Assembly: GCA_963514005.1 (NCBI GenBank)
Contig: OY740811.1
Span: 32,178,001-32,242,000, forward strand
DNA: 64,000 nt
Direction of reading: 5' to 3'
Origin: Raja brachyura
Lineage: Eukaryota
The notes below the pieces were generated by a model. The model was not told where the DNA came from, made no database searches, and saw only the letters and a list, made by a program, of their open reading frames with translations. Positions 11,544 through 34,491 of the stretch are shown one piece after another; within the stretch, counting starts at the first letter, position 1; every line of letters starts with the position of its first letter. Both the position numbers and the translations under genes were made by a program.

Positions 11544-12317
11544 AGACACAAAAAGCTGGAGTAACTCAGCGGGACATGCAGCATCTTTGGAGAGATGTAT
11601 CTGGAGAGAGTAGTATACCACTACTGGTCACATCTCCACCCCTTTCTGCTTTCTGCAGGGATCATTCCCTCCGCAACTCCCTGGGCAACTTGTCCCCTCC
11701 ACGGATACTTTCCCCTGTAACCGCAGGAGATGCAACACCTGTCCCTTTACCTCCCCACTCTACTCCATCCAAGGACCCCAACAGTCTTTTTAGGTGAGGC
11801 AGAGGTTCTCTTGCACCTCATCCAACCTCGTCTACTGTATCCGCTGTTCCAGCTGTCAACTTCTCTACATCGGCAAGACCAAGCGCAGGCTCGGTGATCG
11901 TTTCACTGAACACCTCTGCTCTGTCCGCCTCAACCTACCTGATCTCCCGGTTGCTCAGCACTTTAACTCCCCCTCCCATTCCCAATCTGACCTTTCTGTC
12001 TTGGGCCTCCTCCATTGTCAGCGTGAGGCCCAGCGCAAATTGGAGGAACAGGACCTCATATTTAGCTTGGGCAGCTTACACCCCGGCAGTATGAACATTG
12101 ACTTCTCTAACTTCAAATAACTTAACTTTCCCTCTCTCTCCAACCCCTCCCCCTTCCCAATTCTCCAGTCTTACTGTCTCTGACTACATTCTATCTCTGC
12201 CCCGCCCTCTCCCCTAACATCAGTCTGAAGAAGGGTCTCGACCCGAAACATCACCCATTCCTTCTCTCCAGAAATGTTGCCTGTCCCGCTGAGTTACTCC
12301 AGCATTTTGTGTCTACC
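11544..12317 (+). mobile_element. 5'-truncated Penelope-like retroelement with GIY-YIG endonuclease remnant
   Basis: ORF 11794-12120 CTSSNLVYCIRCSSCQLLYIGKTKRRLGDRFTEHL; inverted terminal copy at the 5' end; hammerhead-like core at 12225-12252. Confidence 0.9.
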
Positions 12318-15005
12318 TAGCATTATGTGAAGATGGGATCGGTAATGGTGCATTTCATTGTTGAATAAGTGTGCACTCTTCTTACCTAAATTTGTTTAGA
12401 GATCGGCTTCCTGAATGGATGAACTGTACACGAGTAGCTGTTGATACTTTCAGGAGCAGGTTAAAACTAACATAACTGGAGTATTGTCCCAAAATATTCA
12501 CACACTGACTTGATTAATGAATCCGCAAATTGCACATTGTGGACCATATTCTATGTTGCTATGCAGATTAACTCTAACTCTTAATTTGACTGGCAAAACT
12601 GCTCTTATCCTTCAAAACATTATGTTGTGATGCCAAAAATTCCAATTAAATTTACATCGCAGTGACTCAGCATCTCAAATTTTAAATTTAAGAAACATAA
12701 ACAAAATGCCCAATGATAATCTAATTTTGGTGATTGAAACCCTTGAGTACCTGAACCTAATCGCCATTCTTAATGTGTGAGTTCAGGCAGTGAATCTCTG
12801 CAGCCCGCTTCAAAATAGAAAGGGCACCTGTCTGAAGGGTATCGACAAGTATGGAGTTGCAGTTAAAAAGTTGGTGGATTTGTTGGTTTTACTTATGCAG
12901 TGAGTAGGGGAAAACTGAGTCCAAAGTTAATAACCTGTGACGATCAGCTAAAGTACCAGCTTCTTAACTAAAAATGTGTGGTTTGGCACTACTGAGTCTT
13001 TTGCAAATTAGCTTGTTGGAAATAAGAAGAATTTGTCTAGTATTAGTACCAAACGCAAGGCTTGTTATTGTGTGAAAGACTGAGAGAAGACTGACATGAC
13101 CTATTCATCGCAAAGACGTTAAATGTAAACAACCCTTACTGAGTTTTTAAACAATCCTGCCACTCCTTTCACAGGGAACGTGCCAATACGAGTGCGTTCA
13201 ATTAATTGAAGTCAGAAATTCCTAATCTAGGAAACCCTCCAATAAAATAATTTATGGACCGTGAGATTACTGGTATATTCCTACAATGGCACCTCGGCTC
13301 TTGGGATAAATGTGTGTAAGAGAGAGAGCACTTTGAATAGCTTGAGTGGGTGACAATTGCTGATTAGAGACACAGGTTTATTCTTGAATGTGCACATTTA
13401 TCAAGAGAATTAACACTTAGACAGTAATGTGCAATGTTGTGACCTTGCTCTTGGGTATTACTCTAGTGCAGAAACTAGATGTTATTGATATTCATTCACA
13501 TGTATAGATTTCCTAGTAAGCAACTGGTGGTTTGTTTTGATGACACCACCAAAGCTGTTTAGGTTTAGAATCTTGACACTTAATATTTTTTCAATCTTGT
13601 GGGTTTAAACCCACCACTTCCAGATTTGCATAAGAGTCTCTTGTTATTTTGATTAGTTCCTGCCATGTATATTTAAGCTTGGTTTATTAGTCATCTTTAG
13701 AGATCTTGTAGAGAAATGTGTTTGCATTAAGGTAGAACTTTATATTCAGTTTCTGAAGGATGCAGTTGTGTCTCAAATATTTGCATTATGTGGCCATTTA
13801 AAAAATACATTTGATAAGGTGCCCGGGCTGTTTGATTGGGAACAACTGCACGGATAGATAAATGGTTTATGAATTTACATCAACAGGAATTTTTAGATCT
13901 TCTCTTATTGATGGGGGTGCAATAACAATTCACGCAGGGCCTTGAGCTTTGGCAGCTGGTTCATGATTTGGCATAAAAAGATAGTGTAATGCATACAAAA
14001 CTTGGTGGGAACACCAGATAAGAAGGGCACATGTCTGCCTAAGACATAGCGACAGATTAAGTTTACTCTTCTATCTGTTTGTCTGGAAAAAGGAAATTAT
14101 GTATTAGTATTATTGCAGAAGAAACGTCTATTGACAGATTTAAAAAATGTTTATATATCAATGGCCGCACTGTTCAACTAAAATATCTCTCGTATTAGTA
14201 CTGCAATTGGTTGCTAGCTAAATTGGACCAACACTTTCTGCTACATATATTAGTCATTTTCCTGGATCTGGAGAAGGTTTTCAGAATTTTAGAATACACC
14301 CAGGCTGTTAGTATTGTGTTTGTTTGTTTAATTTAGTAGATTGACTATTACTGGGGAGATATTTGGCCCATGAGACATTATTTCATTCCAAGCTACTTCC
14401 AACAGAACATGTTGCTTGTGCAATTTGATGATCAAAATTTGCCCGAACATGCAAGTTGATGCTTATTCTTTTACTGTTTGCATGTCCTTTTCATATAGTG
14501 TCCTGAAATGGGGGGACTATGTATAAACACTGCTGTAATTTCTACATGGTGAAACCAAAATGTTTAAAAATAGCCTTTATTAAAATCTGACTGTATTTTA
14601 ACCGCGTGATTTTTTTTCTATTACAAATCTCAAATTGTGGATTACAGAGGCAAGTAAATAAATGATGGGTCTTTGTCCCAAACATTCTGGAGGACACTGT
14701 ATCTGCAAAGATGCATTGTGATAATTTATTTTTTTAGTTTTTCAAAACCCTGGATAAAGAAAAGCTGCTTTCATGTGAAACGGCTGATTATATGAGTGTT
14801 ATGGCGGCTTTCTAGTGTTGTATTTTCTCATGCTCTTCTCCAAGTGGAGGGCAGAATTACAACCAACAAATCTTGCTTCAGTTTGAGACTTGTAGAGGTT
14901 GGCTGGCAGGTTTTAATTGTAACTGTGTGATTTTGCTACAGCTGACAGAAAGTAGCAGAAGCTCTGGTTAGTATCTCAAAATGATGAGCTGTTTGGTTTA
15001 TGCAG

Positions 15006-15134: not shown

Positions 15135-16019
15135 GTAGATTTTGTTTCCTTGAATAAACTTATGTTTAAAATATAGCTGTTACAATTTATTTTGTATTAT
15201 AGTTATGAACTAGAGTACTCCGAACCTGTCGGGCCCATACTGTGGAAAATAAATTAGAATAATATAACTTTGTTTTTATTCCAATCATGAAATAAATAAA
15301 TGCAATCTGACACCTCGAACACTAATGTATGTCTGAAACTTGCTACCACATGCAGTGCTTGAAGCAAATAGATTTGATGTATTTTAGGAAAAGTTGGCTC
15401 AGTAAAATGAAGGAAAGAAATAGTGTGATGATACAATAAGGCGAAGTATGGTATGATTGGATGGGACATTAATACCAACACGGGTTAGTTGGACAGAATG
15501 TCATTTTCAGAATGTCCTAAAAATGTCAGAGAATTTAAAGTTTTTTCAGCCCCTTGAAATTCCATTTCAAATGAAAGTACTATTTTCATTTATAAAAGGA
15601 ACTATATAAATAAACCGTTTATTTAAAATCGTATTTTTTTTAAATGTGGTGTAAATGAACTCATCATGAATAGGATGCTAGAAATTCTGAAGTATAGCAG
15701 ACCAGGCTACTGACCTGGATGAGAACAATAAATTAACATAATTTATGAGACCCGTATCAAGTTAATTAAAAAAACTTCACAAACACTAACGCCAATACTG
15801 ACATAACCAGTTGCGTGGTTTTATTTGACATGATTTGCAGCATGGTTAAATACTCCTGGAGTATATCCTGCTGTTTAAAGTCTTGTGATTGCAAGATACA
15901 TTTTTTTTTACCGACCAACCACTTCACTCCTATTTGTAGTTGTGCATAATGAGAGTTTTTGATTGGTATATTACTTTGTGGTTTCGGCATTCAAGAACTG
16001 CTTTTATCCATTTGTACAG

Positions 16020-16061
16020 GTGACAAATCGAGCAGATTCAGTCTCACAGAATCTAACGTCA

Positions 16062-16108
<47 letters not shown>

Positions 16109-16230
16109 ACAATACAGCATGCCCGAGAGGGACTCTAAACCACCCTTCTCAGAATACAACTTTGAAGATCTGAGTGCCTCCTTCCGTAGCCTTTACAAAT
16201 CCGTCTTTGAGCAGTCTCTCAGCCAGCAGG
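16020..16230 (+). CDS. FOXJ3: FOXJ3 coding exon with polyQ and [23 protein letters not shown] motif
   Basis: gtacag acceptor, G|gtgagt donor; 211 nt, phase 0/1; FOXJ2/3 conserved motif. Confidence 0.96.
16062..16112 (+). repeat. Coding CAG/CAA repeat, 17 Gln
   Basis: CAA(CAG)9CAA(CAG)4CAACAA. Confidence 0.97.
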
Positions 16231-17339
16231 GTGAGTATGGATTCTGTCACACACGGTTCACGCCTTCCCTATTAAACCTTAAAATATTCTTGTTACTTTA
16301 AAGGTTTTGTCTGTTAAGTTGTGGTAACGTTAACAGTTGAAAATCTTTTACAACTAGTATTAAAATGTTATCTTTTGTACATTTGCTATTATTTGGAAGA
16401 GAGAGGTGAATGATATGCAATGTGGTCAGGCTTTGGAAGGGCACATTTTGGGTTTGTTTAAATCTATATCATGGTTTAGAGCCAATTATTCTTGCCAGGG
16501 CAGTATTATCTACCCGTGTATATTTTTGGGTCTTCCTTCAGCTGTGAAAACCTGATTCAATTCTTCCTTTTACTCTCCCACAAAGGGAGAAGAAGAATGG
16601 CATGGAGGAACAGTCAGCTGTTAATGTGACATATACAAGACGGGATACTATTAAATTAAGTATACAGCAAATAAGGTGAAAACTGGGTCTTTAGTACTTT
16701 TTTTCCTTCTGGGGAAGAGTACTTGCTCTTGGCAACCACCATGGTGATGTGATTGCAATCAGGAGTTTGTTGTGTTGCAAATTGCAGCTGTTTACAATTC
16801 ATTCGAACTAGTATGAAGTTTCCTATAAAGAACTTGGACTTCATGTAAATTACAATTCTGTGACATTGCTATTCGTTGACACTATATTTCCATTTGAGGT
16901 CAAAGTTTTACTTTAAACAAAATGTACTATCACTTTAGCTTAATTATACAACTATCTGTTTTTTCCTATTGAAATCAGTTGGTTGCAAGAATACCACATT
17001 CATGCAAATTGTCCTTTCTTGTTTGATCTAAACTTCACGTACATCATTGTATATGTTTCCCAAATCTAACTCATTGACTCCCAGAACCTTAGTCCTGTGA
17101 ACATTGTAAATACATTGCCTTCCATCTGACGGAGGCACATTTAAAATACAAACCTAGAATTTAGCTAATCATTTTACATCTTGAAATATCATATGTGATG
17201 GACAGTGGTAGATTGTTTGAATTTTTCAGATTTGTGATTAATTGTTATTGCCTATGAATGTTACGAAACAGGGAAGATTCTTTTATTGTTAATACGTAAA
17301 GATTATTATTTCACTAATATAATATCGAACCTCTTTTAG

Positions 17340-17639
17340 GGATGATCAACCTGCCTTCTGAGACTTCACAGCCAACCCACACATCTTGTTCCTACCAGCA
17401 TTCTCCCAACAGTACTGTCAGCACCCATCCGCACAGTGGACAGAACAGCCTGTCCAACAGCCATGCAAGTAGCCTTGGAGGCGGTGGGGGAGGGCCACAG
17501 GTGCAACTGCCGCAACATCAGATCCACCCGCAGCACGCACATCACCAACACCATCAACATCCACAGCATCAGCCGACTCAGCAACACCATCAGCACCACC
17601 ACCACCACCAACAGCAACAACACATGGCCTGTAATATCG
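17340..17639 (+). CDS. FOXJ3: FOXJ3 coding exon, Ser/His/Gln-rich
   Basis: ttttag acceptor, G|gtgagt donor; 300 nt, phase 1/1; [20 protein letters not shown] matches FOXJ3. Confidence 0.95.
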
Positions 17640-17692
17640 GTGAGTCCATTTTTCTTAACTTTGCACTGAAATTTCAGGATAATCTTAATTAT

Positions 17693-17992: not shown

Positions 17993-19514
17993 AAACCATT
18001 GTCTTTTGGAAGAGTAAAGAATGGGAACATGTTTGGAGTCTTCCCAGCCCTTTGCCTCCTCCTAGGGGGAAGAAAATGCATTAAAATGCAGTTTCTCAGG
18101 AAGACTATCTAGAGAAGAATGAATTATGCCTGAATATCCTCGTGCCAAACAATCACATGCAACCTCTGTGAGATCCAAAGTAATTTTGTTCCTCTCCATT
18201 TTTCCCTTAATCGTTTGTCCCTTCCTTTACCCAGCAACCCAAAATCTAGCTAGAATGTATCTGATTTGACAGCTGTCCTGCCATCATCAAACTGTTTAGA
18301 CCCACTTTCTAGAGACTTTGGGAAAATAGGCTGGTGCTCCAGTTCCGTACAGTTGGTCATGCCATCCTTCAGAAAATGTACTCTGGCTCTATCGGCCCCC
18401 TCAAATGGATGTTAACAAAATATCGTAGTGCCTCATTATGAAAACGTATGTTAGTATCCCTGTTGTTCTGATTAATTAATATTTTTCTAGCGTTGCTTTA
18501 AATAAAGCTTACCTGATTATTGGTGTTGAAGAAAGTTTTCTGCATGTTAATTGGCTGCTGTGTTTCCAACAACAGTGATGAGACTTCCAAATTACTACTT
18601 TGATTGTAAACTGTTTTGGGACATCCTGAAAGGGCATGAAAGATTATTTGTAAAATTTGTCATCGTACTTGCTCACACCTTTGACCACAAGGTCAGTCAA
18701 TATTTTATTGAATTTGTGCAAAAACTGGGATTTAGTCCCATTGTTAATCAAACCATTACATTTAATGATGTACAATTGACTGGATTGTGATTAGTAAGAA
18801 GACAATTGACATTCGTAACAGTTGCACTTTTGTACCCTTAACTGCTGATAAATTGGCTGTTCAAGCAACTTGAAAAAATTAACTCTCTAAGTTATATTAT
18901 AAGACACATCATTTCAGTTTCTGTGACCCTGGGCCTATTGATTTAATTCTGCTCACTGAACTCTGTCAGTCACTGATAGTGGTGGGGACAAGTTAGTGAA
19001 TATTGTTTTACATCTTGCTGCAATTGGATACACCACGCTGAAAATGGTGGTTAAAGACCCCCCCCCCTTTAAAATATCAAGGATTTTAATTAATTTGTAC
19101 ATTTGTTTTGTTGGAAGCATTAAGCAAACAAGTCATTGTGTTTGATAATATTCAAAATGAGAACAGAAGTAGGTCAATAAGCATATTGTATTCATTAAAA
19201 TCATTACTGGTGCTCTGCCTTGAGATCGCTTTCCATTCCAAGTGTAACATTCCTGATTCCCTTGTTAAAAATCTATAGCCTTGAATAAATGCAGCTGTTG
19301 AATATTTACATCACTCTAAGAAGTGAATTCCTGACATTTACAATCCTTGTAAAACAATCAAATTATGTTTGTGCTCAAATCTACACGAACAGTGAACTAA
19401 TTAAGTTGATAAAATGTTGATAGAGAGAATGGCTTTGATTTTTCAATGTTACTAATCATATTTAGCATGAACCCTTGTTGTTCTAATGCTCTGATGGATT
19501 TATGACTGTTGTAG

Positions 19515-19616
19515 GCATCCCTTCTGATTGGTGCATGAATCTGGATACTCTGAAGGAGAGTTTCCGTATTGCTAGCAGTTTCAATTGGTCTGACGTGGAT
19601 CTCTCCCAGTTCCAAG
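19515..19616 (+). CDS. FOXJ3: FOXJ3 coding exon ([34 protein letters not shown])
   Basis: ttgtag acceptor, AAG|gtaagt donor; 102 nt, phase 1/1. Confidence 0.96.
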
Positions 19617-19952
19617 GTAAGTCATTGGTAATGGGGACCATGGGCCAAATGGAGCTGTCCAAGGTGCAGCTGCTTCCTGTAAGCGGATAGATCGAAATGA
19701 AGACCTGCCAATTAAAAAATATAACAAAACCCAGAAGTTCTGTAGAACTCCTTAGACCAACACAGTGTTATAGTTGGGCACATTGTACATTAGGGCACAT
19801 TCTTTTAGCTGTGGGCGGTTAAGGCATAGTTGTTTTGGCTATAATGTTATACAATTTGAGTATTGCAATAAGTTGTAGGGAAGAAATATTTGATGGTAAA
19901 GTCTCACTCATGAATGTAATATCTTGCAAGTAAACATTTAGTTCTGGTCTCT

Positions 19953-20302
19953 AGGGTAAGCTGGAGTAACTCAGTGGGACAGGCAGCATCTCTGGAGCGA
20001 AGGAATGGGTGACATTTTGGGTCGAGACCCATCTTCAATCTGATGGATTTATGACTGTTGTAGTCTTTCCTTCTGATTAGTGCATGATTGTGGACACAAT
20101 GAAGGAGAGTTTCCGTATTGCTAGCAGTTCAACCGGTCTGATGTGTTTCTCCCCCAGTTCCAAGGTAAGTCATTCAGTCTGAAGAAGGGTCTGGACCTGA
20201 AAAGTCCTTCTCTCCAGAGATGCCTCCTGTCCCGCTGAGTTACTCCAGCATTTTGTGTCTACCTTCGATTTAAACCAGCATCTGCAGTTCTTTCCTACAC
20301 AC
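19953..20302. mobile_element. Penelope-derived fold-back element enclosing a host exon copy
   Basis: Inverted arms ~19959-20037 / 20175-20250; 14-bp TSD tagttctggtctct (19939-19952 / 20303-20316). Confidence 0.9.
20039..20174 (+). pseudogene. Degenerate duplicate of FOXJ3 exon 19515-19616 with intron flanks
   Basis: Aligns to 19490-19626; TGG>TAG at 20078-20080 and a 1-nt deletion; AG and GTAAGT retained. Confidence 0.93.
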
Positions 20303-20607
20303 TAGTTCTGGTCTCTCTCAGGCTCTGAAATTATTGGGTTAATCTGTTTGTCAAAATGACCACACATTCAAAAACCAACCTGATCCTGTGCACACAAATT
20401 TGGCTGATAGCCTTCTTCCTCAATGTGTGTAACTGAATTAGGGATGAGCAATTTAATTTTAATTTTGTTTTGTTAAACCTTTTGTTTATGTTGCTATAAT
20501 TTTCTTTGGATACCTGCTTTGCCTCTCAGGCTGTGGACCCATTGGTTCTTTAGCCTCGTGTTTCCCTGGTTTTCTCCTTAACGCTCTGTCGTGCCTTTTA
20601 TCCGCAG

Positions 20608-20799
20608 GTCTGATGGAGAGTATGAAACAGGCGGATCTCAATAACTGGTCACTCGATCCCGTTCAGTTTGCGGACTTGTGTTCTTCCCTAAACCAGTTCT
20701 TCACACAAACTGGGCTGATCCAGTCACAAGGGAACATGCAGCCCACTGTTTGTCACAACACAATGCATACGCAGAAACCAAACCAGCACATCAGTACAG
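20608..20799 (+). CDS. FOXJ3: FOXJ3 coding exon ([36 protein letters not shown]...HIST)
   Basis: ccgcag acceptor, CAG|gtatag donor; 192 nt, phase 1/1. Confidence 0.96.
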
Positions 20800-23433
20800 G
20801 TATAGACTCCAAACAAGTAGAGCTAGTTACAACTTTTTAATTTAGCGATAAGGTATTCACACGGTGAAGCTTTAAAGATGGTTAACCTTTTGTTTGTTAG
20901 GCCATGGCAATTCAGTAAATTGTTGTACAGAGTTCGCCCACAGCAGAAAAATTGCGAAGCAGGCCACCTTTGCTTTAAATTTCTGTTCACTTTTTATACG
21001 TTTTGATTATTTTGGAAGGACAGGGAAAGCAGCCATCGTTGTTGTGCAAAGGATACGAGTTTGGTTTTATCAGCCTCTGAATATCACTCATTGCAAACCT
21101 GATTGCAAAATATATTGCATCCTTGAAAACAAATTAGCAGGACTATCAATATGCCCTAGGTGAACTTTAACACGGTGCTTCTGTTTGGTTCTCGAAATGA
21201 ATGAAAAGAGGGTGTGGTGAAAATGAACTCAACTTGCAAAAAAAAACAACCAGATTTTCAACCTGGTTTCTAATGATTTGGGTCAACAGTTTTAGTGAAG
21301 CAACAAAATAGAAATCTGAAATGTGCCACACATTACATTACTTGTTAACAACATGCTTGCAATTCAGCTGAACCTGCTGACGCTCTCCCCTATTCTCTAA
21401 CTTCTAACCTACAATTTATGTTTACAGCTTTCTGCTATCCAAGTTTAGCACCTACTGATTGTAACAGTCTTTTGAAATTAACTGCTTTTATTTTAATTGT
21501 TAACAGCTTCTCTGCTCTGTTTCCATTGACCAACATTCTTTTAATTCTTGCAGGTTCCTCCAAGCTTAACGTCCCGCAGTTTTGCTTCCTATTTTTGGCC
21601 ATTTTGTTGTCCCTTTCACAGCTCATCTGCCCTTCAGTAGCTCACACTATCTATTTGCAGCTGTTTTGTGGCTTTTTCATTCCACTGTCCATTGCTTTCT
21701 AATTACTTCTGACAGCTTTTCTGCTTTCAGTTTGTGGGTTTTGCTTTGTGGGCAACTGCTTTCTCCTTTCTCAATTAACTATTTGCCAACAGGTTTCGTG
21801 GGTATTATTTCCTATGCTGTTCTAAACTCTCAAAATTAATGATGTAGTGCAACACGGCATGGATAATCTGTCCACTAAGAGGCCAAAAAGAGAATCTACA
21901 AAAAATGCAGTTCAATCTCAGTATTTAAAGCTGGTACATTTTGATGCCTCACTTTAAGTACCCGTGTCATGTACACCCCCTTCAATTCCCTGTATGGTCT
22001 TAGCCGAAGAGAGAAGGCAATAATTGGCTTCAATATACTACAGTTCTAGAAATAAAATTAATTTAGGAATTCTAAAAGAAACTCCACTTCTCTACTGACC
22101 ACAGGATTGCTGAGTTATTGAGGGGAGAGGGAGAGAGAGAGGGGGAGAGGGAGGGGGAGAAAAGGATGTGGTACAGTTGAATTGCTGACTGCTCCTCACA
22201 CATGAGCAATGAATGAGCACACTGGTACATTTCTATTGGGCTAATTGCTTTGTCTGCACGCAAGTGGTATTTGGCTTGACTTGTGATTCAATCATCCACA
22301 AGATGTGAGTATAGATCTGTGTCCTGAATTGTTATCCCTCCCTGTAGGTAATCGTCTCACAACTTCCCTACACCTACCTGCAGCACCGCTGCACACTTGC
22401 CCTCACTCATCCCCTTGTCTACATTTCTGAAACAAAACGTGTATGTTATTTCAGAATCCAAAAGTGCACCCGCTCTGCGGTTGACGGTTTCGTAATTGGG
22501 TTCCGTGAAACAAGATTGCCATGAGCTTAACACCTAGTGAAAGTGACTGTCGAGTATTTTTTTTAAATATATAGAAATACAGTAGTTTAAGTAGAAATGT
22601 TGAAGGACATTTATTCCTTTGATCTTTTCTAAAGAAACCTTTTGCTTTAAATTGAGCAAGTTTGGTGTTGGGATATGGAATGCTTGTCTTGTTTTGGTTT
22701 TACTCTTGGGTATACCAACAAACCAAGAGCAGAGTAGAGCAATATCCGGAGGAGCTTGCATTCATCATCTCTGTTGCATTCTCCCATGGGTCATGTGTGT
22801 AATCTTTGCAATTTGAGAGGCACACTTCAAAGTGTTTGAGTATAATTTTGACATTTGGAGCAGAATTGAATCGGACTAAACTCATTTCACAAGGACCTCT
22901 TAAATCTCAGAGGAGACTCTGACCTGCTGGTAAGATCGCATTGAGGCGCAGGCTCAAAGATGAAAGTGCAGCACATTTCTTGTGTATTTTTGGTTTGCAT
23001 CTTATTCCAAATTTAAAACCAACTCGTATGTGATAGAAATAAGCAAAAGGTATTAGCATTAATCTGGTTCTTCAGCGGGACATTAAACTAATATTTTCCA
23101 TCATCAAATTTTGTGTAACATTGGAAAAAACGAATGAATGACTATTTTAGAGTTACATTAATTAGTCTTCACAAACAAAGTGACCAGAAAGAAAACCTTT
23201 AGTTGCTCTCCAGCTTGTCTTCCAGAAAGAAATGTAATTGTTATAGGTGATTAGAAATAACACGCAAGTCTTCAGTTCTTTGTTTCCTTAAACTGCTCTT
23301 CTTTTAAGGATCAGGTCTTGTATATATTCATTTGGATCTGACCATGATGCTGGCTCTGGTTGTTTCAGACTGTTGGTGTGTTTACTTGCACTGAAGTGGT
23401 GATTTCTCACTGCTGCACCACTTTCTCACACAG

Positions 23434-33100: not shown

Positions 33101-34041
33101 TCTGTTTTTCTATATAAAAAAGGAAACAAATCTTGGAGTAAGTCACCTGCTCTGACAGTTTCTTTTAATGGGCTGAGTATAATCACAGTGTAGCATCCTC
33201 GAGTGCCGTGAACTGCTAATAATAGTCTGCTATGAACAAGCATGTAAGAACTTGCCTGACACATCCTTCCCATAAACTGGAGCTGCAAGGTCAAATACAA
33301 CGTGATGAAAACACAATGTAGTTAAAGCTGACTTGGATGTCATGCCTGATGCCATGGCTGGTATAGCCACGATTCTCAGGAACTGAGTCTTGTTATTCAT
33401 TTTCAACCGGAGACACGAGAATCTGGAGCAAATGGCAAACTGCTGGAGAAACGCGGTGGGTTGAGCAGCAAATGTGGAGGCAACAGTATGGTTGACGTTT
33501 CAGGTTGAGCCCCTACATCAGGACTGAGAGTATAGATGGGAGATAACCAACTTAAGAGGTCTAAGAGATCCAGATGCAGGGCCTCCATCCAAAATGTCTA
33601 TAGTTGCTGCTTGATGTACTGAATACCAACAGCTGTTCATCATTTTTGGCTAGGTTGACCTTGCTGTGGTCAACCATAGATGTCCAAGATGGTTTGTGTA
33701 AAATATCTCACGGAAATATGGTTTCACGACTTATGTTGGTTAATTGATTAAATTAGCGTTTGCTGTGAGCAGTCTGCTTGAAGTGTTTCTTAACCTGCTG
33801 CACGCAGTTGTTTGTCATCACTCCAACTGTGTAAAAAAACATTTAACTTTACTGTTTCCTCAGTAAAATTAAATATGATAAATAGCTTGGTTACACAAAC
33901 ACAACATTTGGTCAGACACAGAGTGCTGGAGCAACTCAGTGGGTCAGGCAGCATCCCTGAAGAACATGGAGAGGTGATATCTCACCTTTCTTTTCGTTGT
34001 AAACTAATAATACTATGGATACAATAAACTAAACTAAACAG

Positions 34042-34340
34042 AGGCAGCACGGTGGTGCAGCGGTGGATTTGCAGCGCCAGAGACCCGGGTTCCATCCTGA
34101 CTTTGGGTGCTGTCTGTAAGGAGTTTCTACGTTTTCCCTGTGACCCGTGTGGGTTTTCTTCTGGTGCTCCTGTTTCCTCCCACTCTCCAAAGACGTACAG
34201 GTTTGTAGGTTAATTGGATTGAGCAAAATTGTTAATTGACCTTGGTGAATAGGAAAGTGCTAGTGTACGGGGTGATCGCTGGTCGGCACGGACTCGGTAG
34301 ATCGAAGGGCCTGTTTCCTGGTTATACTCAAGTCTAAAAT
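34042..34340 (+). mobile_element. HE1/V-SINE-like SINE, followed by a Penelope tail (34343-34450)
   Basis: A-box ggtggtgcagcgg, B-box ggttccatcc, core and tail. Confidence 0.82.
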
Positions 34341-34491
34341 TCTTGACCCGAATCGTCACCTATCCATCTTCTCCAGAAATACTGCCTGACATTCTGAGTT
34401 GCTCCAGCACTGTGTGTCCCTTTGTGTAAACCAGCATCTGCAGTTCCTAGTTTCTCCAAAGCTCAACCATTCCTGTGTTTTTGCCCAGCAG

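Follow-up and report, generated by a model that had tools for sequence, protein, structure and literature searches.

Results

The FOXJ3 locus and the captured exon

The window, by which we mean the whole 64,000-nucleotide stretch of Raja brachyura DNA that was analyzed, contains exons of FOXJ3, and an insertion lies in the intron between one short coding exon of the gene and the next (Table 1). Forkhead exons were located upstream of this coding exon by PDB and Atlas matches, which concern the upstream forkhead domain only; Pfam and PDB searches with the exons themselves gave nothing useful. Two open frames of the window, at 15963-16301 and 17318-17640, are probably FOXJ3 exons too; they encode a long run of glutamines and a run rich in histidine and glutamine.

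Table 1. Features of the FOXJ3 intron and its insertion (window positions).
Feature	Position	Strand	Remarks
Source of the captured copy	19490..19626	+	FOXJ3 exon and its intron borders (25 nt on the acceptor side, 10 nt on the donor side)
FOXJ3 coding exon	19515..19616	+	102 nt; encodes 34 aa, all identical in shark FOXJ3 P0001
Left TSD copy	19939..19952	+	14 bp
Remnant between TSD and left arm	19953..19959	-	7 nt; probably the outer end of the left arm after a small deletion
Left arm, inverted pLTR piece	19960..20038	-	tail-less
Relic minimal hammerhead, left arm	20011..20038	-	two core bases changed
Captured host copy (loop)	20039..20174	+	136 nt; same orientation as the source
Pseudo-exon	20064..20164	+	101 nt; AG and GT retained; codon 6 is an in-frame stop; one base lost in R. 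brachyura
Right arm, pLTR piece	20175..20302	+	one-sided 3' tail
Relic minimal hammerhead, right arm	20179..20202	+	8-nt deletion after GAAA
Right TSD copy	20303..20316	+	14 bp
Next FOXJ3 exon	20608..20800	+	95% identity to shark FOXJ3 proteins; 3' end estimated from RNA-type contigs

As the original prediction had it, the insertion occupies 350 bp between two copies of a target-site duplication (TSD), which agree at 14/14 positions, and carries two inverted Penelope terminal arms, which are pieces of a pseudo-LTR (pLTR). The arms stand head-to-head; 9 of their 70 aligned bases are mismatched, with a gap of 8 nt in addition, and this divergence is typical of the 32 TSD-bounded pairs collected from contiguous sequence (280/2303); the left arm departs from the commonest letter of its close copies in 5 of 78 columns. 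The TSD encloses both arms and no inner TSD is present, a tail is found on one arm only, both arms come from one subfamily, and the TSD score was reached by 4 of 1000 shuffled flank pairs. A single Penelope-like insertion event in the FOXJ3 intron is supported. A longer TSD of 22 bp including TACACA was set aside, because TACACA is the usual tail end of the element and 22 bp falls outside the 10-17 bp range. The whole 350-bp insertion is predicted to fold as a single hairpin (z -8.5).

The loop between the arms proved to be a copy of the FOXJ3 exon, as claimed, with 88.3% identity to the source (15 substitutions and a 1-nt deletion), and in the 2.7-Gb genome the loop matches two places only, itself and that source. 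The exon is indeed accompanied by the 25 nt and 10 nt of intron ascribed to it, and the copied segment extends from a branch-like CTGAT to four bases beyond GTAAGT. The distance of about 550 bp given for the source holds from start to start (549 bp), but the end of the source lies 313 bp from the insertion site. With intron bases retained in the loop and a single nearby source in the genome, the unspliced, local template that had been proposed is upheld. That the captured segment comprises a whole exon is likely due to chance. An inverted hexamer flanks the FOXJ3 exon (19501-19506 and 19620-19625); in the copy, these flanks pair and lengthen the stem of the predicted fold, and the right limit of the copy coincides with the hexamer end. 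Elsewhere in the window, an arm pair at 33963-34370 encloses ~400 nt of another repeat, which we take to resemble a tRNA-derived SINE.

The parent element and its hammerhead motifs

The arm is a very common repeat, with 751 profile matches in 864 kb of contiguous sequence. Another FOXJ3 intron harbors a 5'-truncated element (11794-12318) that comprises an open GIY-YIG frame, a 3' UTR and the terminal repeat; its frame (11794-12221) precedes the arm repeat on the same strand and matches Pfam GIY-YIG above the Pfam cut-off at 11794-12117. The protein of this element gave 123,101 first-look candidates genome-wide, a figure that is not a copy number. The arm follows a same-strand GIY-YIG frame by ~100-160 nt in 8 of 10 loci selected with this protein, and after an interruption in a ninth. 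At one locus, L224, an upstream frame resembles reverse transcriptase (RT), with an Atlas score of 0.96 and RVT_1 on 11-42% of the members of the nearest clusters; a Pfam search of this decayed frame found no RT. Because GIY-YIG precedes the arm in most loci and an RT-like frame is present at L224, the arms are identified as pLTR pieces of an RT-GIY-YIG Penelope-like element (PLE) of the EN+ kind. The insertion at the FOXJ3 locus contains no ORF.

A minimal hammerhead motif belongs to the element family and agrees with the PLE core definition given in an earlier paper (PMC4209133): the family has CUGANGA, an extra base, a helix II closed by G-C, GAAA, a palindromic pair and a cleavage triplet. 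The motif was matched 107 times in the 864 kb, and the commonest helix II was present in 26 matches. Hammerheads were judged by motif; Rfam, which has no models for such minimal motifs, had no match in the window that reached its gathering score, and neither the locus nor a near-intact copy matched a hammerhead model even when E values up to 10 were allowed. Both hammerheads of the FOXJ3-locus insertion are damaged relics. CUGA has changed to UUGA and GAAA to AAAA in the left arm, and the 8-nt deletion in the right arm takes out the cleavage site. The designation of the insertion as "ribozyme-bearing" thus suits the element family, but not this copy, in which both cores are damaged.

Junctions of the captured segment

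At the right junction, a single base in register is common to element and host. Element and host share six bases (CATCAG) at the left junction, one base away from the visible junction, and the intervening base follows the host. The ctga microhomology originally noted there is in register, but it is imperfect: the shared stretch consists of six bases, not only CTGA, and is separated by that one base. CATCAG lies just 5' of the ribozyme core in four aligned copies that retain upstream sequence, and the hexamer was present in 3 of 43 other element copies, many of which are truncated at that point. Many arms in the genome end immediately 5' of the ribozyme core, as the closely spaced pairs counted below show; the search pattern selects for such ends, and their distribution is biased accordingly.

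Recurrence of local copies across the genome

Five anchored patterns, from which upstream sequence of the element itself was excluded, yielded 20, 22, 16, 23 and 9 head-to-head pairs with loops of ~30-180 nt. All 90 pairs, whose junctions by selection fall at one fixed position of the element, were analyzed for a source within 1.5 kb. A local copy was found in 8 of the 17 TSD-bounded pairs versus 2 of the 73 others (Fisher p = 1e-5) at a TSD threshold of 10, which had been lowered from 11 after the 14-bp TSD of L157, with its one mismatch, was seen; at the first-set threshold of 11, the counts were 7/14 versus 3/76 (p = 4e-5). Two of the 17 TSD-bounded pairs (L154 and L155) are copies of one duplicated segment: they lie 4.2 Mb apart on G000:C25 and show the same insertion in the same flanks, a segmental duplication.

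The eight further local-copy loci (L110, L152, L143, L149, L157, L098, L111 and L171) have loops of 45-154 nt that are 92-100% identical over the aligned bases to sources located 24-806 bp from the TSD. Six sources are direct and two inverted, four lie upstream and four downstream, and several are inside old repeats. When five unique loops were compared with 445 foreign flanks, there were 0 matches. For L157, the local copy was the best genome-wide match (3 of 3 candidates scored), and for L111, whose loop is repeat-derived, it was the best among 40 scored of 1,271 genome-wide candidates. Homology of 1-4 nt is found at one junction side in 5 of the eight cases, and 2-16 extra bases occupy one or both junction sides in 7. 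Divergence between loop and source (20/707) equals that between the arms (21/753). Template switching onto nearby host sequence, proposed for the FOXJ3 insertion, is supported as a recurrent process by these eight further insertions. The remaining nine TSD-bounded pairs comprise L166, which is ambiguous since distant repeats match its loop at least as well as a local one does, L128, for which no source was found within 5 kb, and others with mainly element sequence in the loop. One of the two local-copy cases without an outer TSD, L136, is a lone right arm (G000:C40, near 15,083,700) in which ~47 nt from 173 bp downstream are placed between the arm's own 14-bp TSD and its 5' end, and local capture therefore does not need a palindrome.

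The frequency of capture was estimated in the 864 kb of contiguous sequence, which contains 190 head-to-head pairs within 800 bp. An outer TSD scoring at least 10 was found in 32 of them, with a length of 10-17 bp and a mode of 14 (9/32), and a tail was present on exactly one arm in 30 of the 32. No further clear case was found among the 31 other TSD-bounded pairs of this unbiased sample, and the process is therefore uncommon, probably affecting under about 10% of TSD-bounded head-to-head insertions. Among 445 pairs with loops of 90-120 nt, the first 15 were inspected and included no local copy, most loops being element sequence; twenty hand-picked regions yielded one clear case, L098; and 614 arm matches, 54 of which had an exact 13-nt repeat on both sides, yielded no new local copy. 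Plain palindromes are abundant, with 2,280 anchored pairs genome-wide that have both hammerhead stems intact and 0-29 nt between the arms. Perfect 18-nt matches between loop and flank, below the length cut-off, were seen at L019 and L164 (at +442 and +762) and are possibly short templated patches. By eye, 1-5 bases at the outer end of the arm without a tail are often common to it and the TSD end (L110, L111, L143, L149, L152, L171, L019, L029 and L145), as would be expected for microhomology priming or joining.

Fate of the copy in Raja brachyura and its relatives

The copy is a pseudo-exon, with no open frame in the R. brachyura genome owing to the stop and a frameshift; it is likely inert, with rare inclusion possible. 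Four runs were compared from 23 listed; none is recorded as RNA, and two are RNA-type by our guess. In DNA of organism E, a contig over 20015-20197 contains the loop. It has the parental base at 20064 and 20088, keeps the base that R. brachyura lost near 20128, and shows further differences at 20051, 20057, 20095, 20114 and 20135; no difference at the codon-6 stop is among those listed. The contig enters the arms by 24 and 23 bases only, under the 31-base bridging rule. Because it holds the loop with parental states and with changes of its own, the exon copy is real DNA and older than the split from organism E. Contigs of organism D enter the left arm by 33 bases and start again in the tail, with the loop uncovered; absent cover over the loop was not counted as evidence. 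No single contig spans the whole insertion in the relatives compared. An empty orthologous site, with one TSD and no arms, had been looked for in relatives, but none was seen in organisms D and E, whose contigs run from the host flank into the left arm, so that both carry at least the left junction.

Two RNA-type contigs, one from organism E and one from organism F, run from 19614 directly into 20606 and thus skip the copy; contigs drop rare forms, and organism F was represented by its RNA-type run only. The suggestion of an exon-duplication mechanism is overstated: an exon was copied with both splice sites, but the product is a pseudo-exon with a stop at codon 6 that is skipped in RNA-type contigs.

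Relative to the source, the exon part of the loop has 15 substitutions in 101 positions and the intron flanks have 0 in 35 (p = 0.012); the exon part also exceeds the 6.3% predicted from the arms (p = 0.002), and the loop differs from organism E more than the flanking intron does (7/136 vs 17/1014, p = 0.017), all three tests having been chosen after the data were seen. The excess might be due to chance or to selection against exon recognition, and is not explained by the model that we favor. General hypermutability of such loops was rejected as an explanation, because loops and arms diverge alike in the eight further cases.

Discussion

The findings described above suggest, with a probability that we put at roughly 0.7, that the inverted ends of the insertion enclose FOXJ3 DNA copied during integration, when a nascent end switched template to a site 313 bp upstream. 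The putative sequence of events is as follows. The GIY-YIG endonuclease would cut both strands 14 bp apart, and element RNA would serve to extend both 3' ends, with synthesis beginning at the tail for one and at an inner start site for the other, until each extension stopped just 5' of the hammerhead core. The cDNA end of the tailed arm might then prime, through 1 nt of homology, on the exposed upstream top strand at 19626, so that 137 nt would be copied leftwards, and it could land on the other arm through the 6-nt match of CATCAG with CTGATG before ligation. We thus read the right junction as one of weak priming and the left junction as one of landing, but a mirror order, in which the left arm invades the upstream duplex, fits equally well. 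An Anolis PLE protein was reported to cut and extend both strands and to start at two sites that bound the tail (PMC11167929), from which two arms with one tail would result. The data do not single out the "fold-back" origin that had been assigned to the second arm: two arms primed separately at the two target ends would look the same, and cDNA folding back on itself after the jump would yield the same product as well.

The position of the source beside the landing site means that the inverted junction was closed there, or else patched there later. It is likely that a template switch onto local DNA sealed the junction where the element landed, and closure at the time of insertion is favored because loops and arms have aged equally and because a lone arm also holds a local copy. 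As for the polymerase, which like the order of the steps we infer from the sequences, we lean slightly toward the RT of the element and away from polymerase theta, given the length of the copies (45-154 nt) and their distance from the sources. We also favor DNA over pre-mRNA as the template, because sources lie on both sides and on both strands. A much broader proposal, which we advance only tentatively and regard as somewhat less probable than not, is that Penelope RT jumps from RNA to chromosomal DNA up to ~1 kb from the cut and then to the second arm, that the palindromes are built at the target from two primed ends instead of being pre-formed by self-priming, and that these elements are a standing source of local 50-150-bp duplications, some with whole exons in a hairpin, across cartilaginous-fish genomes.

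The alternative that survives best, though we consider it unlikely, is capture after insertion: a plain palindrome would have broken at its center through a hairpin or cruciform, and host repair would have patched it with nearby DNA. The end structure would be identical, and the 2,280 palindromes with 0-29 nt between their arms offer ample starting material; moreover, polymerase theta is known to leave templated patches marked by short homology and extra bases (PMC12426944). Later patching should, however, leave loops younger than their arms, and they have aged alike in the eight younger cases, nor is the loop at the FOXJ3 locus younger than its arms. The lone arm L136 acquired its local copy at the 5' end with no palindrome to break, and theta patches are, in the same source, generally under 25 bp.

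Another possibility, less probable than later patching, is that the template was nascent FOXJ3 pre-mRNA, with the RT jumping to the tethered transcript; the limits at -25 and +10 would mirror the stretch covered by splicing factors. The copy has the orientation that sense pre-mRNA would give when read from the tailed arm, intron bases are kept between the branch-like CTGAT and the position four bases past GTAAGT, and PLEs are known from previous reports to keep introns (PMC3846280, PMC8557442). But the eight other sources, all within 806 bp, lie on either side and in either orientation, several of them in old repeats, and the left limit at the FOXJ3 locus is explained by the 6-nt match to the element.

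We find it a little less probable again that the copy has been kept as a regulatory poison or circularizing exon whose splicing-in is controlled by the arm stem. The intact AG and GTAAGT, the unchanged flanks beside a changed exon (0/35 vs 15/101), the early stop that inclusion would bring and the stable stem predicted around the copy are what such a role would call for. However, two changes of organism E fall in the 25-nt flank, which weakens the case for selection on the splice flanks, and the two RNA-type contigs join the parent exon directly to the next. The copy also lacks the CTAAT upstream of the parent exon, which we take to be a branch-like site, and the loop has diverged faster, not slower, than the flanking intron in comparison with organism E. 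An older tandem exon duplicate later flanked by two opposite, independent Penelope insertions, of a kind common enough to give an inner TSD in 20 of the 90 anchored pairs (e.g. L018, L020 and L024), or else an error of assembly, is scarcely credible, because the TSD lies outside both arms with none inside, the arms are of one subfamily with a tail on only one, and organism E holds the loop with different substitutions, which a faulty assembly of the R. brachyura genome could not produce.

In its architecture, the FOXJ3 insertion agrees with the inverted insertions of EN+ PLEs as they appear in earlier papers (PMC8557442, PMC3846280, PMC11167929): the arms are head-to-head, the tail is one-sided, there is one TSD, a minimal hammerhead resides in the pLTR, and the parents encode RT followed by GIY-YIG. 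Its inverted, 5'-truncated arm, its tail on one side only and the TSD around the whole unit conform to the described type, in which the tail measures 30-40 bp. The junctions described in those texts are direct or palindromic, whereas the FOXJ3 insertion has target-site DNA at its junction; it also differs from the descriptions in having no ORF and in the damage to both ribozyme cores. A few unrelated sequences captured between solo pLTRs have been reported in the rotifer Adineta vaga (PMC3846280), where, as here, intron-containing host sequence lies between pLTRs within one TSD. According to the part of that paper available, the Adineta gene was moved in trans to a new chromosomal location between direct pLTRs, a local origin is not stated for the captures, and self-priming on an antisense template was proposed for the palindromes. 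The source of the FOXJ3 copy, in contrast, lies within 1 kb of the landing site, and the copy lies between inverted arms.

Copying of near-target genomic DNA is also known for L1, for which one study gives 22 templated insertions in 3,598 insertions, under 250 bp and with templates typically within 15 bp of the site (10.1101/2024.08.27.596794); three more are described in another (PMC11702581). The segments described here are likewise non-element DNA under 250 bp inside a TSD (137 nt at the FOXJ3 locus and 45-154 nt in the eight others), and L1 twin priming, as presented there, also keeps a discrete TSD. The templates are more distant, however (313 bp here and 24-806 bp in the others), L1 is of a different enzyme class, and its twin priming results in a 5' inversion, not in two copies of the same end. 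End joining by polymerase theta, as far as the consulted part of the source describes it (PMC12426944), shares the local template, the minimal priming homology, the extra unmappable bases and the patchwork cases, and short homology and extra bases were found at our junctions too; theta insertions are generally under 25 bp, in contrast to the copies found here. In the literature within reach, which left out most subscription papers, we found no report of locally templated DNA between inverted Penelope ends, and the accessible part of a retrozyme preprint (10.64898/2026.07.22.740005) has nothing on such templating. Judged against these partly accessible sources, L1 templated insertions and pLTR capture of host DNA were known, and local templating between inverted Penelope ends is new.

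The origin of the tandem and inverted ends of PLEs is stated as unresolved in three papers (PMC8557442, PMC11167929, PMC3846280). Target-site DNA at the meeting point of the arms shows, for these copies at least, that the arms were joined at the landing site, because a palindrome finished in RNA or as free cDNA could not contain such DNA unless it was patched later. The arm-host-arm structure is therefore a concrete product for the existing in vitro PLE system to be examined against, and Penelope elements can be counted among the origins of short local duplications. As the FOXJ3 case demonstrates, an entire exon and its two splice sites can be included in such a copy; its direct biological effect is probably small because the copy became a pseudo-exon.

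A more complex candidate was encountered in the 864 kb at L049:4083-4476, together with L049:2731-3006. It is a head-to-head pair that falls below the threshold, has a 12-bp TSD with one mismatch and contains two inverted local pieces from ~220 and ~1,150 bp away. Each piece begins inside an older arm copy, as does the copy at L098, and old arm copies may act as landing pads.
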